From: Flavobacteriales bacterium
Lineage (GTDB): Bacteria; Bacteroidota; Bacteroidia; Flavobacteriales_F; PHOS-HE28
DNA: 49,453 nt
Direction of reading: 5' to 3'
Assembly: GCA_017998165.1 (NCBI GenBank)
Contig: JAGODO010000001.1
Location: 1-49,453 of the forward strand
A program made the position numbers and the translations under genes. Of the stretch, positions 9,804 to 20,000 are shown one piece after another. Every line of letters starts with the position of its first letter. Positions within the stretch are counted from its first letter, which is position 1. The notes under the pieces were generated by a model. That model was given only the letters and a program-made list of their open reading frames with translations. It was not told where the DNA came from and did no database searches.

Positions 9804-10006
9804 CCATGGCCTCTTCGCCCGGCCCTCGCTCATGGTGGCTTACGGGGCGCATGAGCGGGAGCCACTTGAAGGGCTATCGGTCTGCATACGTTCCACTGCT
9901 TTCTGGATCCGCGGTTCGAGCAGGAGGTACGCCAGATAGACATCGGCATTCCCGCGAGGCTGACCGGATCGGAACGCAGGACGTGCGTGGGATGCGGTCG
10001 CATACC

Positions 10007-11215
10007 TCAGCTTTCACCGTGCCGGTATTCCAGCTTCGGAAGGAAGGCTGCCAGGAGGCCGAGCAAAGGCAGGAACGAGCACACATGATAGACGAAGTCG
10101 ATGCTCGTGCGGTCGGCCAGTTCGCCAAGCACCGCCGATCCGATGCCCGCGATCCCGAACGCGAAACCGAAGAAAAGTCCGGACACCAGGCCGATCCTTC
10201 CGGGCAACAATTCCTGCGCGTACACCAGGATCGCCGAGAAAGCCGAGGCGATCACCAGACCGATGATGATGGAGAGCACCGTGGTCCAGAACAGATCGGC
10301 GTAGGGCAAGGCCAGCGCGAATGGAGCCGATCCAAGAATGGAGAACCAGATGACCGGCTTGCGTCCATAACGATCGCCGAGCGGTCCACCCAGTACAGTG
10401 CCCACGGCCATGGCGAAGAGCAGGAAGAACAGGTGCATCTGCGCAGCTTGGACGGCGAGGTGGAAACGGTCCATGAGATAGAAGGTGAAATAGCTGCCCA
10501 AACTCGCGGTGTACACATGCTTGCTGAAGATGAGCGCCAACAGAACGGCAACGGTGATGGCGACCTTTCGCCGAGGCAGATGTGAACGTTGGGAGCCCGC
10601 TCCCTTCCGGGTCTTCAAACGTTCCGGGTGGTGGCGATACCACACGCTCACGCGCCAAAGCACGGTGATGGCCACCAGGGCGATGGCGGCGAACCAGGCG
10701 ATGCTGCTCTGCCCATAAGGCACGATGATCAACGCGGCGAGCAGAGGGCCGAGCGAGGACCCGAGATTGCCCCCGACCTGGAAGATCGATTGGGCCGTGC
10801 CCCGTTTTCCACCCGATGCCAGGCTCGCGATGCGCGATGCCTCCGGATGGAAGACCGCGGAACCGAGCCCCACCAGCGCCACCGCGAACAGGATCCCTCC
10901 CAAGTCACCTGCACGCGAAAGCAAAAGCAGGCCGCACAGTGTGCTGCCCATGCCCACCACCAGCATGAAAGGCACCGGGCGCCTGTCCGTCCATGCGCCC
11001 ACCACCGGCTGCAGGATGGACGCGGTGATCTGGAAGGTGAAGGTAATGAGCCCGATCTGGGCGAAGCTGAGATGGAAGCTCTCTTTCACCAGCGGATAGA
11101 TGGCCGGGACCAACGACTGTATCGTGTCGTTGAGCAGGTGCGAGAAGCTGATCGCGATGAGTATCGGGAAGACCGTGCGTTGGGTTTCCTTCCGGGCGGT
11201 CTCGGCGGGTGTCAT
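10007..11215 (-). CDS. MFS transporter, Fsr (fosmidomycin-resistance)-like
   Basis: 12 TM helices. The N-terminal SFSHLLNDTIQSLVPAIYP motif is typical of the Fsr subgroup, and WTDRR is in loop 2-3. The ATG at 11215 is preferred over the GTG at 11245. Confidence 0.75.
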   Translation of the reverse strand: MTPAETARKETQRTVFPILIAISFSHLLNDTIQSLVPAIYPLVKESFHLSFAQIGLITFTFQITASILQPVVGAWTDRRPVPFMLVVGMGSTLCGLLLLSRAGDLGGILFAVALVGLGSAVFHPEASRIASLASGGKRGTAQSIFQVGGNLGSSLGPLLAALIIVPYGQSSIAWFAAIALVAITVLWRVSVWYRHHPERLKTRKGAGSQRSHLPRRKVAITVAVLLALIFSKHVYTASLGSYFTFYLMDRFHLAVQAAQMHLFFLLFAMAVGTVLGGPLGDRYGRKPVIWFSILGSAPFALALPYADLFWTTVLSIIIGLVIASAFSAILVYAQELLPGRIGLVSGLFFGFAFGIAGIGSAVLGELADRTSIDFVYHVCSFLPLLGLLAAFLPKLEYRHGES

Positions 11216-11328
11216 CAGTGGGGCGAAGATCGCTCGCAGGAACACGATCAGGAGCCGGGCCCTCCCTATGGCCCAACGTTGATCGTGCCATGCTTCGAAG
11301 CGGGATCCGGCATACCCATCTTCGCACC

Positions 11329-11787
11329 ATGCGCATCATCGACTACGCGCCCCGCTACCAAGCCGATCGGAAGCGCATCAATGTGGCGTGGATCGCCGAG
11401 CGCTTCGTTGTTGAGGACGTTGACCTGGAAGTGCTGGACCATCCCGATGAGAACATCCTCTCGAAGGGAGGGCACATCATCCTGGCCATGGAAGGCGATG
11501 AGGTCGTCGGCACCTGCGCCTTGCTGCTCCATGCTCCGGGCGTCTATCAGATGGTGAAGATGGCCGTGGATACCCGCTCGCGCGGAAAAGGCATCGGACG
11601 CGCCCTCGGCTTGGCGATCATCGAGAAAGCCCGGCAACAAGGCGCACGAATGGTGATGCTCTATTCCAACCGCGCCGGTGCCATGGAAGCGATCGACCTC
11701 TACCTCAGGCTTGGTTTCATGGAACTCCCATTGCCCACGAAAGCCTACGCGCGCGCCGATATCTACATGGAACTGGAATTGAGCTAG
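11329..11787 (+). CDS. GNAT family N-acetyltransferase
   Basis: Motif A: MAVDTRSRGKGIGRALGLAIIEKA. Length about 152 aa from the internal ATG. Confidence 0.8.
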   Translation: MRIIDYAPRYQADRKRINVAWIAERFVVEDVDLEVLDHPDENILSKGGHIILAMEGDEVVGTCALLLHAPGVYQMVKMAVDTRSRGKGIGRALGLAIIEKARQQGARMVMLYSNRAGAMEAIDLYLRLGFMELPLPTKAYARADIYMELELS

Positions 11788-11832
11788 CGGCAGGCAGGTA
11801 CGTCGAAGACCTTGGTCTCCGATCTTCGCCGC

Positions 11833-12597
11833 ATGAGCATCCGCATCGGAAAGATCCTTGTAACCGCCGCCATCCTGGTATTCGGTCTACAAGAGTTGCT
11901 GAACATGTGGCGCCAGACCGGCGACGCGATGAGCGTTGCGGTGACCGGGTTCATCAACCTTGTGCTCGCCGGGCTCTTGCTGCGCAGTGCCTTGAAACGG
12001 CCTGACCCTCTGGTTGCTCCTCCACGTGGCTGGACCATCTTCTGGAACGTTCTTGGTGCGCTTTGCGCGCTGAGCTTGATCGGGAACCTGTTCGGACTGG
12101 GAAGGCCGCCCGCAAAGCACCGCATCACCGTGAATGGCTTGACCATCCCACTGGACAAGTGCGTAGAGGGTTCGGTGCGCATTTCCAAGGAACCCGCCGA
12201 GCGCCTCGCGTTCTGTACGTGTACAGCGACCAAGCTCGCCGAACTCGAAGGAGTCTCCACCGTTCATGAACGGGCGCTGGAAAGCGGCCGCTTGGATGAG
12301 GTCATCGAAGATCTGCAACGCGAACAGAAGGTCGACATGAAGCCTTTCGCTGATTGTCTGGCGAACTCGGCGGGCTCGCGGTGGACCCTGGTGATGTCCG
12401 AACGGGTCAGGGCCGAATGCCTCGCGCGCATTGCAGCGGACAGCTCCTATCAAGATCTCGTGGTCTCCAAGTTCTGTGATTGCCTCGCCGAGAAAGTCAC
12501 CCGCTTCTCCCCGTCCGAAGTGGCGTCCTGGGATCCGGACACGACAGGGGTCGCCATCCAACTACGGGCGGAATGCGCGGAGCTTAGCCGCAAGTGA
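11833..12597 (+). CDS. Hypothetical membrane-anchored protein with repeated Cys-containing motifs
   Basis: Three N-terminal hydrophobic helices are followed by a soluble domain with recurring xFC(T/D)C and xxECLA motifs. I recognise no family. Confidence 0.5.
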   Translation: MSIRIGKILVTAAILVFGLQELLNMWRQTGDAMSVAVTGFINLVLAGLLLRSALKRPDPLVAPPRGWTIFWNVLGALCALSLIGNLFGLGRPPAKHRITVNGLTIPLDKCVEGSVRISKEPAERLAFCTCTATKLAELEGVSTVHERALESGRLDEVIEDLQREQKVDMKPFADCLANSAGSRWTLVMSERVRAECLARIAADSSYQDLVVSKFCDCLAEKVTRFSPSEVASWDPDTTGVAIQLRAECAELSRK

Positions 12598-12630
12598 TCG
12601 CCTTGCATGCACGTCCCCGGTTTGGTCGCG

Positions 12631-13557
12631 TCATGAGCTCGCCAGCACCAACCGTGCCTTCTCCTTTCCGAGACGGATCGTCGCGATCGCACCGGAGTTG
12701 AACTTGAGATGGTCCGCAGCGATGCCATCGGAAAAGATCACGCCCTTGTCCGGCATCAATGACGTGATGGTGATCTCCTGCCCTGCTTTCAATCTGCCTG
12801 TAGTGACGGCGATGCCCGAGCGCCGGCTCTGGAACGGCTCGCGCACCACGAACTGGAGTTCATTCTCCCCGAGTCCTTTCGACTTTCTGGCCTTTTCCTG
12901 CGGACCCCGAAGGAGGCCATTGGCCATGTTGTACATCGAACTCAGCCAGCCCGTGCTGCCAGAGCGCGTGGATACCAGGATACCCGATGAGCTCTGCTCC
13001 TCTTCTTCCGCTCCGAACGTGATGCGGTAACGCGCCGAGGTATGATCGCTGATACCGATGAAGAGGTCGTTGAAGGCGAGCAACCGCTGGCCGTCGTTGA
13101 GGCGCGCTTCAGCCAAGGACGCATCGCGGTGCATGTAGGCGCCAGCGACCACGCGTTCCACGGCAGCAAGACAGGTCGCGGAATTGAAAGGCAGCAGCAC
13201 ACCGTCGTAGCGCTCGGGGTCCGGGTTCACGCCGATCATGGGACGGCCGCCGACGTACTTCGCTGCGTTCGCCAGCAGGCCGTCCTGACCGATGGTGATC
13301 ACCACCTGATCGTCGCTGAAGATGAACGACGGCAGGAAGGCGCGCTCCACCACCTTGTTCTTGATCGTCCGCGCCAAACTCCGCTGCACCTCGTCCAACG
13401 CGGTGTGGAATGCGTCGTGTTCGCGCTCGTAGTCCGTGAAGTCGCCACCGTTGCGCTCGATGTAGAAGCGTGCCTGCGACCGCGTGTTGAAGCGTTCCAC
13501 GAGCATCTCCAGCCGCGTGCGGCCCCGAACGATGATCGCGTATTCGATCCGCGTCAT
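12631..13557 (-). CDS. Divergent NAD kinase-fold (NADK/DAGK/PFK superfamily) protein
   Basis: NADK motif I is degenerate: VITIGQDGLL instead of GGDGT. The motif III equivalent is ILVSTRSGSTGWLSS, versus the TPTGSTAY consensus. The start ATG overlaps the upstream SPFH stop (ATGA). Confidence 0.65.
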   Translation of the reverse strand: MTRIEYAIIVRGRTRLEMLVERFNTRSQARFYIERNGGDFTDYEREHDAFHTALDEVQRSLARTIKNKVVERAFLPSFIFSDDQVVITIGQDGLLANAAKYVGGRPMIGVNPDPERYDGVLLPFNSATCLAAVERVVAGAYMHRDASLAEARLNDGQRLLAFNDLFIGISDHTSARYRITFGAEEEEQSSSGILVSTRSGSTGWLSSMYNMANGLLRGPQEKARKSKGLGENELQFVVREPFQSRRSGIAVTTGRLKAGQEITITSLMPDKGVIFSDGIAADHLKFNSGAIATIRLGKEKARLVLASS

Positions 13558-14570
13558 TTCTTCTCCTCCTTGCGCAGCAGCTGCTCCAGCAATTCGGGAC
13601 TGATGTTCAGCGTGCCCACTTTCCCTGCGTTCTCCGCCAGCTCGCGGAAGGCCATGGCGATGTTGGAGCGCGCGTCCTGTTCACCGCGCAAGGCCATCAG
13701 CATGCGCCAGTCCATTTCCTTGTAGGGCTTCAGTGTGGTCTCCAGTACGTAGCCCTGCGCATCGGCCTCCTTGCGCTCGTTCGCCGTCTTCTGGTCGATC
13801 AACATCTTGCGCTGATCTTCCACCGCGATGTCCGCCTGCACCTTCAGTTCGCGCAGCTTGCGTTCGTTCTCGGCCTTCTGCACGTCGCTCTCCATCACCT
13901 TCTCAGCGATCTGTTTGCGCTTCTCCTCAACCGCGATCTCCGTGTTCAGCTCGCTTTCCTTGATCTTCCGCTCCTGCTCCACAGCGAAGTTCCGCCGCTC
14001 GTAGATGGCCTGGTCCGCTTCCTGCTGCAGCAGTTCGCGCGTCCCTGTCTCCAGCGCCCGCGCCATTTCCGGCGAGGCTTTCACCGCCAGCACATTCACG
14101 GAGAGCACCTCCACCCCTAGCGCCGCGATGGCCGCTGAGCCCTTGATCCCCGTGCGGATCTGCTCCTCGATGGCCTTCGCTGAACGGATCGCGTCCTTCA
14201 GCCCGATGCCGTGGATGTAAGAAGCGGTGGCCGTCTGCGCCTCGTTGATGATGCGCTGGTTCAGCTTCTCCAGGTCGTTCTTCTTGTAGATGCCCCGGCC
14301 GTCCACGGTGAAGTCGAGCAATAAGGCGAGCTGCTTGGCGTCGGCCACTTTGTAGCTCACCTGGCCTTGGATGGAGATGCTCTGGTGATCACGCGTGGTC
14401 TCCGCGAAGATGAAGGGCAGGTCGTTGCTGCCCAACGGGATCGCCGCGATGGAGCTGCTGGGGGCGAAGTAGAAGAAGGACAGGCCCCTGCCTTCCTGCA
14501 CCACTTGGCCGTTCTTGTAGTGGATGACGTGCGTCATCGCGTCGAAGCTGATGTACTTGATGCCGAACAT
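13554..14570 (-). CDS. SPFH/band-7 (flotillin/stomatin-like) domain protein with long coiled-coil tail
   Basis: The N-terminal SPFH-like core runs FYFAPSSSIAAIPLG...GVEVLSVNVLAVKASPEMARALE. It is followed by a Glu/Lys/Ala-rich heptad region (ERKIKESELNTEIAVEEKRKQIAEK...). Confidence 0.8.
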   Translation of the reverse strand: MFGIKYISFDAMTHVIHYKNGQVVQEGRGLSFFYFAPSSSIAAIPLGSNDLPFIFAETTRDHQSISIQGQVSYKVADAKQLALLLDFTVDGRGIYKKNDLEKLNQRIINEAQTATASYIHGIGLKDAIRSAKAIEEQIRTGIKGSAAIAALGVEVLSVNVLAVKASPEMARALETGTRELLQQEADQAIYERRNFAVEQERKIKESELNTEIAVEEKRKQIAEKVMESDVQKAENERKLRELKVQADIAVEDQRKMLIDQKTANERKEADAQGYVLETTLKPYKEMDWRMLMALRGEQDARSNIAMAFRELAENAGKVGTLNISPELLEQLLRKEEKK

Positions 14571-14665
14571 GCGCGGAAGGTAACGGGATGGCCGGGATCA
14601 GGGCTGGACTGGAATGCTGTCCGCAGATGACGCGGATGACACAGATGGAATGCGGCTGCCGCGCT

Positions 14666-15382
14666 TCAGGCTCCGGGGCGACGAAGAATGAACTTGCGCT
14701 GAACATTCTGACGAACATCCATACACAGCAATACGCCATCGAGGACCGGCCCGGTCTTCGACAGCAGCTTCAACACCTCGTTCGCTTGCAGGCTGCCGAT
14801 CACCGCGCAGGTGGTGGGCATGATGCCGGTATTCGCGCAGTTGAGCAACGCATCCGCGTAGAAGGCCGACAAGTCAAAGGCCTCGCGCAGGTGGAAGCCC
14901 CGCAGATGGTGGAGCACGGTGACGTAGCCCTCCCATCCCTGCGCGGTAGCGAAGGCCAGCGGAATGCGGTGCCCGCCGCAGGCAGCGTCGATGGCGAAGC
15001 GCGCTTCCAGGTTGTCCGTGCAATCGCAGACCACATTGCGGTCGGCGACCATGTGCGCCAGTACCTCGGTGAACGGCTCGGTGATGGCCTGGATACGGAC
15101 ATCCGGGTTCTGGATCTTCAACCGTTCGGCGAGCACGGCCGCTTTGAATGCGCCGACATCTTCATGTGCGAATTGGAACTGCCGGTGCAGGTTCGTCACG
15201 TCCACACGGTCCGGATCCATGATGGTGATCGAGCCGACACCAGCAGCGGCGAGCAACGTGGCAACGGACGTACCCAAGCCACCAGCACCGATGATCAGTA
15301 CACGTCCGTCGAGCAGCTTCGCCTGGGCTTCTTCACCGAAGCCTTCCACCGCGATCTGCTGCGTGTAGCGCGCCCCGCTCAC
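14666..15382 (-). CDS. ThiF/MoeB/HesA-family E1-like adenylyltransferase (short form, no zinc CxxC pairs, no rhodanese domain)
   Basis: Motifs present: RYTQQI, the Rossmann loop LIIGAGGLGTSVA, MDPDRVDVTNLHRQ, VCDCTDN, and the crossover-loop Cys region NCANTGIMPTTCAVIGSLQANEVLK. The GTG start overlaps the TGA of the upstream ORF (GTGA). Confidence 0.85.
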   Translation of the reverse strand: MSGARYTQQIAVEGFGEEAQAKLLDGRVLIIGAGGLGTSVATLLAAAGVGSITIMDPDRVDVTNLHRQFQFAHEDVGAFKAAVLAERLKIQNPDVRIQAITEPFTEVLAHMVADRNVVCDCTDNLEARFAIDAACGGHRIPLAFATAQGWEGYVTVLHHLRGFHLREAFDLSAFYADALLNCANTGIMPTTCAVIGSLQANEVLKLLSKTGPVLDGVLLCMDVRQNVQRKFILRRPGA

Positions 15383-17949
15383 TTCCGGTTGATCTGTGAA
15401 GTGATGGTACGGTCCGTGATCTTGTCGTCCTCAGCGAGCAGAAAGGCTTTGGAAATGATCACCGATAGACCAGAGTCACCTTCGAACGGCAGGAACAGGT
15501 TCTGTGTCGGCGCTTTGCTGCGGTCCGGTACGATGCACAGATACTGGTCGTTCGGCTCCATCAGGATGTTCGTGCTTCCAAGGTGGATCTTGTAGGTGCG
15601 GATCTTGCCTTTCACCACGAGGAATTTGTCCTGGATGCTGGAGACCTTGGCGATCTTCAAGCGCGGTAACAGGCCGGTGAGGATCTCCTTACGCGTCTTC
15701 GCCACTTCACCCAGATCACCGAAGGAGTAGCTCTGCCAATAGTCGCGGTAGCCCGGCAATGCGCCACCGCTGTCCTGCCATTCGGGATCGTTGCCCACGC
15801 TGGCCACGCCCACGAAGAGGTCCACATCGCGCATCACCTCACTGAAAGCCACCACCGGAACATCCACCAGGTCCATCGGATCCTCGTAGCCGATGCGCCC
15901 GAAACGCACCTGGTCCGTGGCCATGTAGGTCCAGATGCCCGTGTCGTTCGTCGCACCATCGGCGTTCACCTCGTTCAACCAGAACTGCGCGCCGATGCCG
16001 TGATCGGGCAGCGAAACGCTCGCCCATGACCCGTCCTGCCCGTTGTCGAATGCGCCCTGCAAGGCGTACTTCCAGCCGCGGGCCTTGGCCAGCGAGTTGA
16101 ACTGGTGCTGCTTGAGCAGATGCGCTGCCATGCGGTTGCTGTAACTGCGCGTGTTCATCTCCGCGTCCGTCAGCAGATACACCTCTCGGTACGCCTGTTT
16201 CAGCGGTTGGCGGATCTCACGCGCCATCATGAACTCGCGCCATGTGCGGACATCCGCGACGCTCGCCGTGGCTGGATGCCAAAGCGAAACGGACATCGTA
16301 TCCATCGGCGTGAAGGCGTCACCCTTCATGGTCGTCCATGCGCCGTCGACAAGGATGGCAGGCATGATGCGTTCTCCGTCATGGAAATTCCAGATGATGC
16401 GATTCGCCAGGAAGCCGAGCAGTCCATGTTCCACGAAATGCTCCCGGAAGTATGGCATTGCCATAACGCGCGTGCTCCGGAACATCCGGTCGATGCGGTC
16501 GCGCTGCGCGGTGGTGCCCAGGTCCACTTGCTTTACCGCGTCCTTCATCTTCTTCAGCTTGGCGGCGTGGCCTTCCTTCACCGCTGCGGGCACCGATTTC
16601 TGGGGCGTTCCATCGGGCTTCCGCCACTCCAGTTCGCTATCGCCGGGACCGGTCACGGTGAGCGTGGCGGTGTAGCCGTCGAAGTCCCATGCGCGCGACC
16701 CGTCCTTCAATCCCAGGTCATCGCAGGCCTGATCCTCGATCTCGTACACCGTGATGCCCTTGTCCGCCGCCGCTTCCGCGAGGTACCTATCGATCAGTGC
16801 CACCGTGCTGCTCTGCTTGATGCGCAGTTTCAAGCGGCTCAATTGCCCGATACCGTCCAAGCCCTTCGAGCGAAACAAGGTGAAGAGGCACGCGTTACCC
16901 ACAGCCATCGCGGCAGGGCCTTGTTGCGGGATCTTCCGGAAGCTCCGTTCCGCCAGTGCCGCAACCGTGGTGATCGTGCGCGCATCATGGAAGTGCGCGC
17001 ACATCCACACCAGACCCTTCAGCAGATCCATGCTCTGCGTGTGCAGGAACTCCGTGGTGGTGTAGGTCTGCTCGCGTCCGTTGTAGCGGTGAACGTGTTC
17101 CGTGGTCTTTTCCTTCAGTTTGATGACGAAGTCGAACCAGGTCATCACCTGTTGCTTGAACGCGTCCGCGCCCGGGCCGTCGATCAGGGTGCGGGATGCC
17201 GCGAGGTACTTCTCGCTCGGCTTGGATCCGCTCGCTTTCATGGCGTGGCCCAGGATCGGGTACCATTTGTCCCGCAACTCCGGTGACATCGCTTGTACCG
17301 CACTGTTCACTTCCGGAACGAACGGATCATCGCCTTTGATGAGCACCGGATGCACCTCGCCTTCCCCCGCCGGTCCCGCGATGATGGCGTTGATGCGGTC
17401 GATCAGCTTGATCCGCTCCTTCTCGCTCGAATAGTTGGTCGATCCGTTTACCGTGATCCGCGTCGCGATCAGCGTCGCGCGCAGTCCATCCGAAACGGGC
17501 TTCGCCTTGTGCTGGCGTTCGATGTGCGTGAACAGCATCCCGATCGGCCACGATAGCAAGTTGACGTTTCCCCAACGGCCGTGGGTCGAGAACGTGTCCA
17601 ACAAGCGCGCGACATCCGCGTCGTCCACTACCAGCGACGCCCGAAGTACCTGTTGCACCAAGGCGATGCGGAACTCATTCCGCATGTGGTCATCACTACC
17701 GAATGTGATCGAACGCCTACCGCTCTGCCATTGATGGGTGGCGCGAGCCAAGTAGTCGAGCAGGTCAACGCGCTTCTTGTCCGGCCACGTGGACACTGCT
17801 TCCGTCCAGGCCTTCATCGACGCGACCTTCAGGCCCGCATAGTTTCCACCGTTGGCCCGATGTTCCGCTTCCAGGTCGGCGATCACCCGATCATATTCCG
17901 GATGACCGCCCAAGCCGATGGCGCTCTTCAGTTTGTCCAGCAATCCCAT
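15379..17949 (-). CDS. Large (856 aa) uncharacterised protein, DUF4132-like (MolR/YehI-type) C-terminal two thirds
   Basis: Coding is clear: it is translationally coupled on both sides. The segments HGLLGFLANRIIWNF, WHPATAS...REIRQPLKQAYREVYLLTDAE and KIRTYKIHLGSTNILMEPNDQYLCIVPD...LFLPFEGDSGLSVIISKAFLLAEDDKITD match my recollection of DUF4132-containing proteins. I saw no E2 HPN-Cys or JAMM motif. Confidence 0.55.
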   Translation of the reverse strand: MGLLDKLKSAIGLGGHPEYDRVIADLEAEHRANGGNYAGLKVASMKAWTEAVSTWPDKKRVDLLDYLARATHQWQSGRRSITFGSDDHMRNEFRIALVQQVLRASLVVDDADVARLLDTFSTHGRWGNVNLLSWPIGMLFTHIERQHKAKPVSDGLRATLIATRITVNGSTNYSSEKERIKLIDRINAIIAGPAGEGEVHPVLIKGDDPFVPEVNSAVQAMSPELRDKWYPILGHAMKASGSKPSEKYLAASRTLIDGPGADAFKQQVMTWFDFVIKLKEKTTEHVHRYNGREQTYTTTEFLHTQSMDLLKGLVWMCAHFHDARTITTVAALAERSFRKIPQQGPAAMAVGNACLFTLFRSKGLDGIGQLSRLKLRIKQSSTVALIDRYLAEAAADKGITVYEIEDQACDDLGLKDGSRAWDFDGYTATLTVTGPGDSELEWRKPDGTPQKSVPAAVKEGHAAKLKKMKDAVKQVDLGTTAQRDRIDRMFRSTRVMAMPYFREHFVEHGLLGFLANRIIWNFHDGERIMPAILVDGAWTTMKGDAFTPMDTMSVSLWHPATASVADVRTWREFMMAREIRQPLKQAYREVYLLTDAEMNTRSYSNRMAAHLLKQHQFNSLAKARGWKYALQGAFDNGQDGSWASVSLPDHGIGAQFWLNEVNADGATNDTGIWTYMATDQVRFGRIGYEDPMDLVDVPVVAFSEVMRDVDLFVGVASVGNDPEWQDSGGALPGYRDYWQSYSFGDLGEVAKTRKEILTGLLPRLKIAKVSSIQDKFLVVKGKIRTYKIHLGSTNILMEPNDQYLCIVPDRSKAPTQNLFLPFEGDSGLSVIISKAFLLAEDDKITDRTITSQINRK

Positions 17950-17951
17950 CG

Positions 17952-18341
17952 CTATCCGCCCACCAACGGCGTAAGTTTCACGAAGCTGATGCGCGTGCTC
18001 TTGCTCAGGCGCACTTCCTCTTCCAGCGTTTCGGCCTGCCGGTCATCCACCAGCATGAAGAAGACGTTGCGCGTGAACGCATCCAGCGCGACGTACACCT
18101 GCTTCTCGCCGTCCACCGCGCGCTTGTTCTTCAGCTTGAAGCCGTTCAGCGTGCGCTCGGCATCACTGGGCTCCACAAGGCCATTGAAGAACTCCGGGCG
18201 CTTATCGTTGTAACGCCGCACTTCTTCCAGCACGCGGGCTTCGATGATGTCCCGGACGGTAACGAGCTCACTGGCGAATTCCAGTTCGATCTCGTTCAGG
18301 ATGTCCCCGGCGAAGGTCTCGTCCTTGATGGCGATGAGCAT
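17952..18341 (-). CDS. Ubiquitin-like/MoaD-ThiS-like candidate, 129 aa, ending in Gly-Gly-stop
   Basis: ATG start. The C-terminus ...RISFVKLTPLVGG is followed directly by TAG. The N-terminal strand-strand-helix pattern (MLIAIKDE, ILNEIELEF, VTVRDIIEARVLEEV) is consistent with a beta-grasp. It lies 2 nt upstream of the next ORF and two genes from the E1. Confidence 0.6.
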   Translation of the reverse strand: MLIAIKDETFAGDILNEIELEFASELVTVRDIIEARVLEEVRRYNDKRPEFFNGLVEPSDAERTLNGFKLKNKRAVDGEKQVYVALDAFTRNVFFMLVDDRQAETLEEEVRLSKSTRISFVKLTPLVGG

Positions 18342-18564
18342 ACGTGGTGCGCCGAGGCCCGGCGCTGGTATCAGGTTGTTGTGTTCAGCGCGTCGAAGAT
18401 GCGCGATCGCTCGATGCCGACCACCAGCACCGGGTTGAAGTGATCATGTGGGGAAGATCGTCATCCATGAACGACAGGCGTCCGTTCCATGGAAAGAGTT
18501 GTTCCAGTTCAACGCGCCATCCCCGTCCCTGTACCAATTTCAACCCATCAAACCCGACCCGACC

Positions 18565-19458
18565 ATGAGCACATACCTGATCCTCGGCGCCACCGGCAAC
18601 ACCGGCAAACCCATCGCGCAAGGGCTTCTCGACAAGGGGCACACTGTCCGCATCCTCGTGCGTGACGCCGCCAAAGCCAAGGAACTCACCGATCAAGGCG
18701 CGGTCCTGTTCCAAGGCGATGCCATCGACAGCGACCTGTTGAAGCGCGCCCTTGCCGGAGCGGACGCGGCCTATTTCCTGGTGCCGCCCAGCTGGGGCGC
18801 TGAGGACTTCTCGGCCCACCAACGGGAGCATGTGGACGCGTTCACCCGAGCGCTGCGTGGCTCGGGCGTGAACCATGTGGTGACCCTCAGCAGCATCGGC
18901 GCGCACCTGTCGGAAGGCAACGGCGTGGTACAGGGTCTGCACTACATGGAGCAGGCGCTGAACGGCATCAGCGGGTTGAACAGCCTGCATCTGCGTTCCA
19001 CCTATTTCATGGAGAACAACCTCGGCGGCGCGGGCATGGTCAAGAACATGGGCCTGATGGGGGGGGCCGTTCGCCCCGACCTGAAACTCCCCATGGTGGC
19101 CACGCGCGATGTCGCCGCAAAGGCCCTTGATCACCTCCTGAAGCTCGACTTCGACGGCCATGGCCACGAATACGTGCTCGGGCCCCGGGAAGTCACGCTT
19201 CCTGAAGTTGCAGGCGTGCTGGGGGCCGCGATCGGCCAACCCGACCTGAAGTATGCCCAGTTCCCTTACGACCAGGCCGCACAGGGCATGATGCAGATGG
19301 GTGCCAGCGCGAGCATGGCCCAGCGCATGATGGAGTTCGTGGAGTGTTTGAATTCCGGGAGGATCCTTGAAGAGGCCCGCCGCGATGCGGTGAACACCAC
19401 GCCGACGGACATCAAGGAATTCGCACCGGTGTTCAAAGCGGTGTACGAGATGAACTGA
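18565..19458 (+). CDS. NmrA-family / NAD(P)-binding atypical SDR protein
   Basis: From the internal ATG the protein begins MSTYLILGATGNTGKPIAQGLL (Rossmann GxxGxxG). The rest has NmrA-like architecture. Confidence 0.8.
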   Translation: MSTYLILGATGNTGKPIAQGLLDKGHTVRILVRDAAKAKELTDQGAVLFQGDAIDSDLLKRALAGADAAYFLVPPSWGAEDFSAHQREHVDAFTRALRGSGVNHVVTLSSIGAHLSEGNGVVQGLHYMEQALNGISGLNSLHLRSTYFMENNLGGAGMVKNMGLMGGAVRPDLKLPMVATRDVAAKALDHLLKLDFDGHGHEYVLGPREVTLPEVAGVLGAAIGQPDLKYAQFPYDQAAQGMMQMGASASMAQRMMEFVECLNSGRILEEARRDAVNTTPTDIKEFAPVFKAVYEMN

Positions 19459-19559: not shown

Positions 19560-20000
19560 ATGCCCATCACACGCAGAGCCACCGCCACTTGGAGCGGCAC
19601 TGGCAAAGAAGGCTCCGGAGCCGTTACCACCACGAGCGGAGTGCTCAACAACACGCCGCATTCGTTCCTCACGCGTTTCGTGAGCGAGGACGGCAAGGCC
19701 GGCACCAACCCGGAGGAACTGGTCGCCGCCGCGCATGCGAGTTGCTTCACCATGAAGCTGAGCTTCGTGCTGAACGCCGCCGGCTTCACACCTGACAAGT
19801 TGGAGTGTACCGCCAACGTGAAGATGGACAAGGTGGGCGACGGCAATGGCGTGGTGGGCATCCACCTCGAGTTGAAAGGCACCGTGCCCGGCATCGATGC
19901 GGCGAAGTTCCAAGCCTGCGCGGAGGACGCGAAGGCGAATTGCCCGATCAGCCAGTTGCTGAAGAGCGTGCCGATCACGCTGAGTGCGACGTTGGGCTGA
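19560..20000 (+). CDS. osmC: OsmC family peroxiredoxin
   Basis: Both conserved Cys contexts are present (AAHASCFTM and KANCPIS). Length is 146 aa. Confidence 0.85.
   Translation: MPITRRATATWSGTGKEGSGAVTTTSGVLNNTPHSFLTRFVSEDGKAGTNPEELVAAAHASCFTMKLSFVLNAAGFTPDKLECTANVKMDKVGDGNGVVGIHLELKGTVPGIDAAKFQACAEDAKANCPISQLLKSVPITLSATLG

Follow-up and report, generated by a model that had tools for sequence, protein, structure and literature searches.

The window analysed here, a stretch of 49,453 nucleotides (nt) from a Flavobacteriales bacterium (GenBank assembly GCA_017998165.1, contig JAGODO010000001.1), carries on its minus strand two overlapping genes, the first encoding an SPFH/band-7 protein and the second a protein with a NAD-kinase fold. 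They lie directly behind a three-gene cassette that encodes a ubiquitin-like (Ubl) protein, a DUF4132 protein and a ThiF-type E1 enzyme (Table 1). A previous interpretation, made from the letters and their open reading frames (ORFs) and called below the sequence-only reading, had speculated that the pair might be a functional companion of this cassette. The explanation which accounts best for the data, and which we consider probable, is that the pair is an autonomous, translationally coupled operon of the nrtX-nrtY type, horizontally spread, combining an NADK2-type protein (NrtY) with an SPFH protein devoid of a membrane anchor (NrtX), and that its position next to the cassette is incidental to one lineage. 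The layout described in the sequence-only reading is confirmed by the coordinates: the pair is on the same strand as the E1 gene and separated from it by 95 nt, and the SPFH stop codon and the kinase start codon share an ATGA at 13554-13557. The identities of the genes given there, SPFH and NAD-kinase fold, also stand, being supported by the Pfam Band_7 match and by phmmer and Foldseek matches to NADK2.

Homologous loci were collected by a scan of one genome per species, which yielded 531 confirmed loci, and 80 of these, from at least 8 phyla, were kept for comparison; more than 6400 of the candidates scored were homologues of the kinase-like protein. In 78 of the 80 loci the SPFH gene immediately precedes the kinase-like gene; the two remaining loci are truncated by the end of a contig. 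Of 79 homologous pairs, 44 show exactly the 4-nt overlap found in the window, and the majority of the others fall within -11 to +15 nt. Because both the gene order and the overlap recur to this extent, the arrangement seen in the window is beyond chance. The start codons assigned to both genes agree with the N-termini of their families, M1 being invariant in the SPFH alignment. The two proteins also appear to have been inherited together: pairwise distances among the SPFH proteins correlate with those among the kinase-like proteins (Mantel r 0.86, a value reached by none of 2000 permutations). A third conserved partner gene was sought by clustering ORFs over the 80 loci, and the only further ORFs to recur were shadow ORFs within the SPFH and kinase-like genes themselves. 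When 121 flanking genes were compared with Pfam, 157 families were matched, the commonest of them in only 4, so none is recurrent, and no NfeD family is among the 25 most frequent. One 574-amino-acid (aa) fusion of SPFH and kinase parts (P0200, with the motif GPDG) was found among 3413 profile matches; as a singleton on an assembled contig of 6.7 kb, it provides weak evidence for an interaction of the two proteins. An apparent fusion ORF of 602 aa in locus L080 turned out to be an out-of-frame upstream extension.

The distribution of the pair is patchy. It occurs in 11 of 300 genomes sampled across the phylum, in 9 of 101 genomes of one family (f12) and in 4 of 80 genomes of the window's own genus, and in the maximum-likelihood tree phyla and families are interleaved. 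Such a rare, patchy and interleaved distribution fits an accessory operon that is transferred horizontally. Some tree rows labelled as non-Bacteroidota need caution: contigs assigned to Cyanobacteriota, Acidobacteriota or Bifidobacterium carry kinase genes near-identical or sister to Bacteroidota ones (L053 vs L047, L007 vs L005 and L018 vs L003), and these contigs are likely to be mis-binned and not recent transfers.

If the pair belonged with the Ubl/E1/DUF4132 trio, as the sequence-only reading suggested, the two modules should travel together in a comparison of gene neighbourhoods, the check that it had itself named. They do not: an E1, DUF4132 or Ubl-like gene lies within 10 kb of the pair in none of the 80 loci. 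Direct adjacency is found in close relatives of the window, whose kinase is 93% (L087-L089, spacer of 147 nt; G548, spacer of 47 nt) or 89% (L090, spacer of 113 nt) identical to that of the window. In relatives with a kinase 81% (L083), 80% (L085 and L086) or 70% (L084) identical, the upstream position is taken by an unrelated gene. Within the window's genus, one genome (G487, 100% complete) contains the three-gene cassette without the pair, and three others (G520, G528 and G537) contain the pair without the cassette. In family f12, one of three cassette genomes also has the pair, and the other two (G386 and G410) have the cassette alone. The restriction of adjacency to relatives at 89-93% identity, the breaks in DNA homology described below and the existence of pair-only and cassette-only congeners indicate that the juxtaposition was inherited in one narrow lineage. 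The pair and the cassette are not a conserved functional unit, and neither module needs the other.

The 95-nt spacer between the E1 and SPFH genes was analysed in the same light. A consensus scan revealed neither a terminator-like nor a sigma-70-like promoter site in it, the spacer folds no better than shuffled sequence (z +0.97), and it has no match in Rfam; the remark in the sequence-only reading that the gap lacks a terminator thus withstood all three analyses. The spacer is not conserved, as its varying length in the adjacent relatives illustrates, and DNA homology between the window and its nearest relative, G548, breaks within it. Homology to the pair-only relatives starts at 14572-14582, at or just inside the TACCTTCC box and 2-12 nt ahead of the SPFH ATG, and extends as far as the kinase stop codon. 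A box of the form TAnnTTnC is present 5-12 nt before the ATG, at equal distance, in six relatives, regardless of which gene lies upstream. The TACCTTCC box could be either a weak -7 promoter element of the Bacteroidota type (consensus TAnnTTTG) or a part of the translation-initiation region. In 8 of 52 loci the canonical Bacteroidota -7 box, TAnnTTTG, precedes the SPFH start by 27-34 nt. In two of the relatives that carry the TAnnTTnC box the upstream gene is transcribed divergently, which means that transcription of the pair must start from a separate promoter in them. These data suggest that the pair in the window may likewise have a promoter of its own; read-through transcription from the cassette is possible as well. 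Two or three copies of the motif CATCTG[CT]G were also noticed in the E1-SPFH spacer of the window (14600-14640, minus strand), of L087 (6700-6790) and of L090 (6890-6930), and they are absent from the 47-nt spacer of G548.

The family to which the pair belongs appears to have been listed before. In the study of Rodionov et al. (2008; Nucleic Acids Res 36:2047, PMC2330246), nrtX-nrtY are given as predicted members of the NrtR regulon with unknown function, and GT-N7-AC is given as the core of the NrtR operator. Over 294 aa, the kinase of the window shares 37% identity (E 9e-70) with a protein named 'NrtR-regulated hypothetical OrfY' (P0350), whose gene is preceded by a Band_7 gene at a distance of 10 nt. 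Since the main text of the 2008 paper holds no description of the proteins, equating the two pairs rests on the OrfY annotation and on shared context. The nrtX-nrtY (OrfX/OrfY) genes and those of the window are the same pair in the same order on the same strand, a Band_7 gene followed by an NADK-like gene; unlike the listed members, the window's pair sits behind the Ubl-DUF4132-E1 cassette, with no operator in the gap, in a genome that, like five congeners, has no NrtR. By this sequence comparison, the pair in the window is a new, NrtR-less member of an already listed but uncharacterised nrtX-nrtY family. A literature search retrieved no paper naming both 'SPFH' and 'NAD kinase'.

The association with NrtR is observed directly in relatives. 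An NrtR gene (Nudix domain and NrtR winged helix) lies within 10 kb of the pair in 7 of the 80 loci, representing four or five lineages, and six of these loci have GT-N7-AC operators 5' of the operon. NrtR is placed directly upstream of the pair in Pedobacter and overlaps the kinase stop in Acidobacteriota, and in Chryseolinea the order is NrtR, DUF4291, SPFH, kinase. The operators are pairs of 21-bp GT-N7-AC palindromes just 5' of the SPFH gene or, in Chryseolinea, of DUF4291, and in a 5.3-Mb Pedobacter genome the exact operator pattern occurs at those two sites only. ADP-ribose genes, namely those for SIR2, NADAR, Macro, ADP-ribosylglycohydrolase (ARH) and the ADP-ribosyltransferase (ART)-like DUF4291, accompany the pair in two lineages; DUF4291 is a predicted ADP-ribosyltransferase-like family (PMC12522546). 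In Dysgonomonas, NrtR, SIR2, NADAR, GNAT, ADP-ribosylglycohydrolase and Macro genes are found beside the pair. The Dysgonomonas locus L041 (10959-18301), and also L058, show in addition a gene for an 829-aa methyltransferase-domain protein directly 3' of the kinase gene, after which an island of NrtR, SIR2, NADAR, GNAT/YoaP, ADP-ribosylglycohydrolase and Macro genes follows on the opposite strand. A further 21-bp palindrome, TTAGTTT-N7-AAACTAA, is present 29-113 nt 5' of the SPFH start in Saprospiraceae and Lewinellaceae loci (L077, L013, L057 and L079); it has the layout of an NrtR operator, with TT/AA replacing the GT/AC core.

NrtX is unusually conserved, being about 70% identical across phyla. 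In its AlphaFold2 (AF2) model, with a predicted local distance difference test (pLDDT) score of 77, the SPFH domain spans residues 1-165 and is followed by a single helix about 118 residues long (167-284) and by short helices at the C-terminus, and Foldseek matches this model with probability 1.0 to HflK/C, erlin, stomatin, QmcA, prohibitin, flotillin and major vault protein. Judged by these matches and by the model, NrtX resembles the SPFH proteins that build rings or cages, with an SPFH domain and a long helix. The sequence-only reading had described it as a membrane scaffold. NrtX contains no N-terminal hydrophobic segment or membrane anchor, the AF2 model opens with beta-strands at residue 5, and the most hydrophobic stretch of 19 residues (145-163) is a strand inside the SPFH domain. 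Since the N-terminal hydrophobic segment is missing, a membrane scaffold is unsupported by the sequence. The comparison with SPFH-NfeD operons and cage-forming SPFH proteins (HflK/C-FtsH, QmcA-YbbJ, stomatin, flotillin, prohibitin and major vault protein) therefore shows both likeness and difference: the SPFH domain with its long helix is common to them and NrtX, and the tight coupling of an SPFH gene to a partner gene is shared with the NfeD operons. In contrast to these systems, NrtX has no N-terminal transmembrane segment or hairpin, and its partner is a soluble kinase-fold enzyme and not NfeD.

NrtY is best matched, in sequence and in fold, by NADK2, also known as C5orf33. A phmmer search of the PDB with NrtY finds only NADK2 (E 1.6e-7), and a search with the family profile returns NADK2 at 6e-12, canonical NAD kinases at 9e-6 to 1 and no lipid kinases. 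The AF2 model (pLDDT 89.6; predicted template-modelling score, pTM, 0.85) has a two-domain fold, and its top Foldseek matches are the human NADK2 structures 7r4l, 7r4j and 7n29 (E 1e-19, template-modelling score 0.74-0.76), followed by bacterial NAD kinases. In 67 members of the NrtY family, the residues G90-Q91-D92-G93, N111-P112, D118-G119, N163-D164, S190-S191-G192, T197, G200 and G203-W204 are invariant. NrtY therefore keeps the aspartate (D92) that corresponds to the catalytic D161 of NADK2, whose D161N variant is nearly inactive (PMC9245612), together with the last glycine of this motif, which reads GQDG and not GGDG. N163-D164 aligns to ALNE of NADK2 and preserves the NE/D motif, which recognises adenine and ribose (PMC9763689). 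SSSG...GSTGW aligns to SSG...GSKAW of NADK2, and NrtY thus has the Ser and Trp that C5orf33-type kinases carry (S306 and W319) at the places where canonical NAD kinases have Asp and Tyr (PMC3535332). The candidate motif-1 segment is P106-M-I-G-V-N111-P112-D113-P, in which Pro stands where PX-GXN(T/S)DP expects Thr or Ser. The catalytic Asp, the NE/D motif and the Ser and Trp are thus common to NrtY, NADK2/C5orf33 (PDB 7r4j and 7n29) and plant NADK3, and a G-x-N-x-D-P segment of NrtY resembles motif 1. An extra helical segment follows GSxxW at the position of the NADK2 insert and is shorter than the latter. However, NrtY and NADK2 are only 21-22% identical, they differ in the GQDG motif and the motif-1 Pro, and NrtY is a bacterial protein, always paired with an SPFH gene, whose activity is predicted from sequence. 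With canonical bacterial NadK/PpnK the two-domain fold is shared, whereas the NAD-site residues differ and the family scores lie far below the cut-offs. A canonical NAD kinase, NadK, is encoded elsewhere in the window's genome (contig C153), so NrtY is a second, paralogous enzyme there, although, according to reviews, bacteria possess just one NAD kinase (PMC9245612, PMC8553519). The proposal of the sequence-only reading that the kinase-fold protein handles NAD would, with this fold and these motifs as its basis, appear to be correct. One divergent singleton relative, P0226 (557 aa), has a kinase-like part with a C-terminal tail of several hydrophobic segments.

Taken together with the regulatory context, these features allow a most likely mechanism to be proposed. 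NrtY would phosphorylate NAD(H), or a very close ADP-ribose-containing dinucleotide, and would thereby supply NADP(H) when NAD is consumed and its turnover is high. An oligomer of NrtX might hold or gate NrtY. In some lineages the operon would be switched by NrtR, a repressor that senses ADP-ribose. As the window's genus is without NrtR, such switching would not apply here, and read-through from the cassette could take part.

Several results weigh against the explanation of an independent NAD-related operon, and some of them concern the cassette. A block of five genes, cassette and pair, is kept in at least four assemblies (G548, L087-L089 and L090) while the downstream flank varies. An orthologue of the DUF4132 protein of about 860 aa is encoded in 10 of the 80 pair-bearing genomes as compared to 3 of the 300 in the phylum sample, a roughly 10-fold co-occurrence of the two modules at the level of genomes, more frequent than chance and without linkage. 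The three cassette genomes of the phylum sample all carry the pair, and a DUF4132 paralogue of about 1700 aa is not enriched among pair-bearing genomes. These data, together with the common strand, the 95-nt gap and the lack of a terminator, can be taken in favour of the idea of the sequence-only reading, in which the pair is a co-transcribed functional extension of the cassette and the SPFH protein or the kinase is a target or effector of Ubl activation. This idea seems to us quite unlikely. It is difficult to reconcile with the absence of the cassette within 10 kb in all 80 loci, with the unlinked positions in those other genomes that have both modules (2.9 Mb apart in G135), with the cassette-only genomes G386, G410 and G487 and the many pair-only genomes, even within the genus, and with a spacer that varies from 47 to 147 nt and contains the breaks in homology. 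A strict dependence of the cassette on the pair, suggested by three of three in the phylum sample, is ruled out by the same three cassette-only genomes. The genome-level co-occurrence is read here as shared ecology or a weak tie, and a weak functional tie is still allowed by it and by the retained block of five genes. Two side observations concern the DUF4132 genes. A second DUF4132 architecture, about 1700 aa long, is present in further families of the Bacteroidota (G211, G239, G163, G223, G047 and G375) and shows no association with the SPFH/kinase pair, and in G374, the pair-bearing Acidobacteriota genome of locus L076, the orthologue (contig C11, 241762-243659) is interrupted by stop codons and is for this reason probably a pseudogene.

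The remaining points on the opposing side concern NAD and NrtY. No NrtR_WHD was found in the window's genome (73% complete) or in five congeners (91-100% complete), and no NrtR operator in the window's upstream region (best score -1.5); the link to NAD and ADP-ribose is borrowed from about 9% of the relatives. The support for a complex of NrtX and NrtY, namely tight coupling, co-inheritance and one singleton fusion, is indirect. NrtY has no Pfam match at E 0.01 or better, and its highest NCBIfam NAD-kinase score reaches 23.7 bits where the cut-off lies at 309, with weak matches at E 2.7e-5. In nearly all representatives of the family, Q, P or R takes the place of the second Gly of GGDG; of about 126 whose motif could be located, only 2 have the canonical Gly. 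As GQDG replaces GGDG, kinase activity is unproven and the substrate is possibly not NAD. The altered phosphate-binding loop, its invariance as GQDG in the 67 members and the low scores with NAD-kinase models could accordingly mean that NrtY is catalytically inactive and acts as a dinucleotide-binding sensor or a regulatory subunit of an SPFH assembly. We regard this as unlikely, since the catalytic Asp and the final Gly of the loop are invariant, as are the N-D motif and the Ser and Trp of the NAD site, the whole active-site region is very strongly conserved, and 7 of 65 eukaryotic C5orf33 homologues are also without a strict GGDG (PMC3535332). A different substrate was considered as well, with NrtY as a lipid or other small-molecule kinase of the NADK/diacylglycerol-kinase superfamily, acting at an SPFH microdomain in the membrane. 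The usual role of SPFH proteins is to organise membrane domains, and the one divergent relative with a C-terminal multi-transmembrane tail would fit such a picture. However, profile and fold searches return only NAD kinases and no entry for DgkB, YegS or a sphingosine kinase, NrtY conserves the NAD-specific N-D motif, the SPFH partner is anchorless, and the NrtR and ADP-ribose context points elsewhere; the lipid-kinase identity was rejected on the outcome of these searches, and the reading as a whole is extremely improbable.

The sequence-only reading had also been reminded of conflict or stress systems. NAD is a known battleground in phage defence, and a patchy, horizontally transferred, self-contained unit of two genes, flanked in two lineages by genes for ART-like, SIR2, Macro and NADAR proteins, could serve in anti-phage defence or conflict through manipulation of NAD(P), for instance by converting or sequestering NAD on infection, with the SPFH cage as a sensor or effector. 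The data speak otherwise: PADLOC matched neither protein of the pair and gave only scattered defence-model matches among the 121 neighbour genes, with no defence-island signal, there is no toxin-like or nuclease partner, and control by the metabolite-sensing NrtR is better suited to homeostasis. A defence role thus appears very unlikely, and the earlier reminiscence was not borne out. Returning to the explanation preferred here, an independent nrtX-nrtY operon, a bolder extension of it can be imagined, to which we give only a very small chance. The anchorless SPFH protein would form a soluble, vault-like cage that encloses or gates the NADK2-type kinase, a compartmentalised device making NADP(H) in answer to NAD-turnover stress and related to the ancestor of mitochondrial NADK2; in the lineage of the window, the device would have been drawn into the Ubl-DUF4132-E1 system, with Ubl conjugation acting on it. 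If true, this would explain both the retained block of five genes and the unlinked co-occurrence in genomes.

Table 1. Features of the SPFH/kinase locus and of the neighbouring cassette (window coordinates, given 5' to 3' on the strand of the feature where two dots are used for a gene).
Feature	Position	Strand	Length	Basis or remark
nrtX-type SPFH/band-7 gene	14570..13554	minus	338 aa	Pfam Band_7, E 7e-14
nrtY-type gene, NADK2-like NAD-kinase fold	13557..12631	minus	308 aa	PDB phmmer, Foldseek, profile search
ATGA stop/start overlap, SPFH/kinase	13557-13554	minus		Translational coupling; read from sequence (...AAG AAA TGA CGC...)
TACCTTCC box	14575..14582	minus		5-12 nt 5' of the SPFH ATG
E1-SPFH spacer	14665..14571	minus	95 nt	Between E1 stop and SPFH start
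ThiF-type E1 gene	15382..14666	minus	238 aa	Pfam ThiF, 2e-59; stop TGA at 14668-14666
DUF4132/DUF7737 gene	17949..15379	minus	856 aa	Pfam DUF4132, 9e-39; DUF7737, 2e-40
Ubl-like ORF	18341..17952	minus	129 aa	Neighbour, outside the SPFH/kinase module
Whole Ubl-DUF4132-E1 cassette	14666..18341	minus		Neighbour of the SPFH/kinase module, not part of it

The flanks of the five-gene block are variable. An NmrA-like gene (18448-19458 in the window) separates OsmC (19560-20000) from the Ubl gene and is without counterpart in L087, L090 or G548. On the other side, the 2.8 kb located 3' of the pair (window 9818-12640, with an MFS transporter, a GNAT protein and a 261-aa ORF) are missing from G548.

For the cassette, these results mean that it is to be analysed as a unit of three genes, without SPFH or kinase effectors. 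For the nrtX-nrtY family, listed eighteen years ago, they describe several thousand homologues in many phyla in which a second enzyme of the NAD-kinase fold, with mitochondrial NADK2 as its nearest characterised relative, is always coupled to an anchorless SPFH protein. Such a combination is unexpected in view of the single bacterial NAD kinase of the reviews cited above. The window adds to this family a lineage of the module without NrtR and an unexplained genome-level association with the Ubl cassette. The substrate of NrtY and the role of a putative SPFH cage would bear on NAD(P) homeostasis in bacteria, on SPFH biology beyond membranes and on the origin of NADK2.

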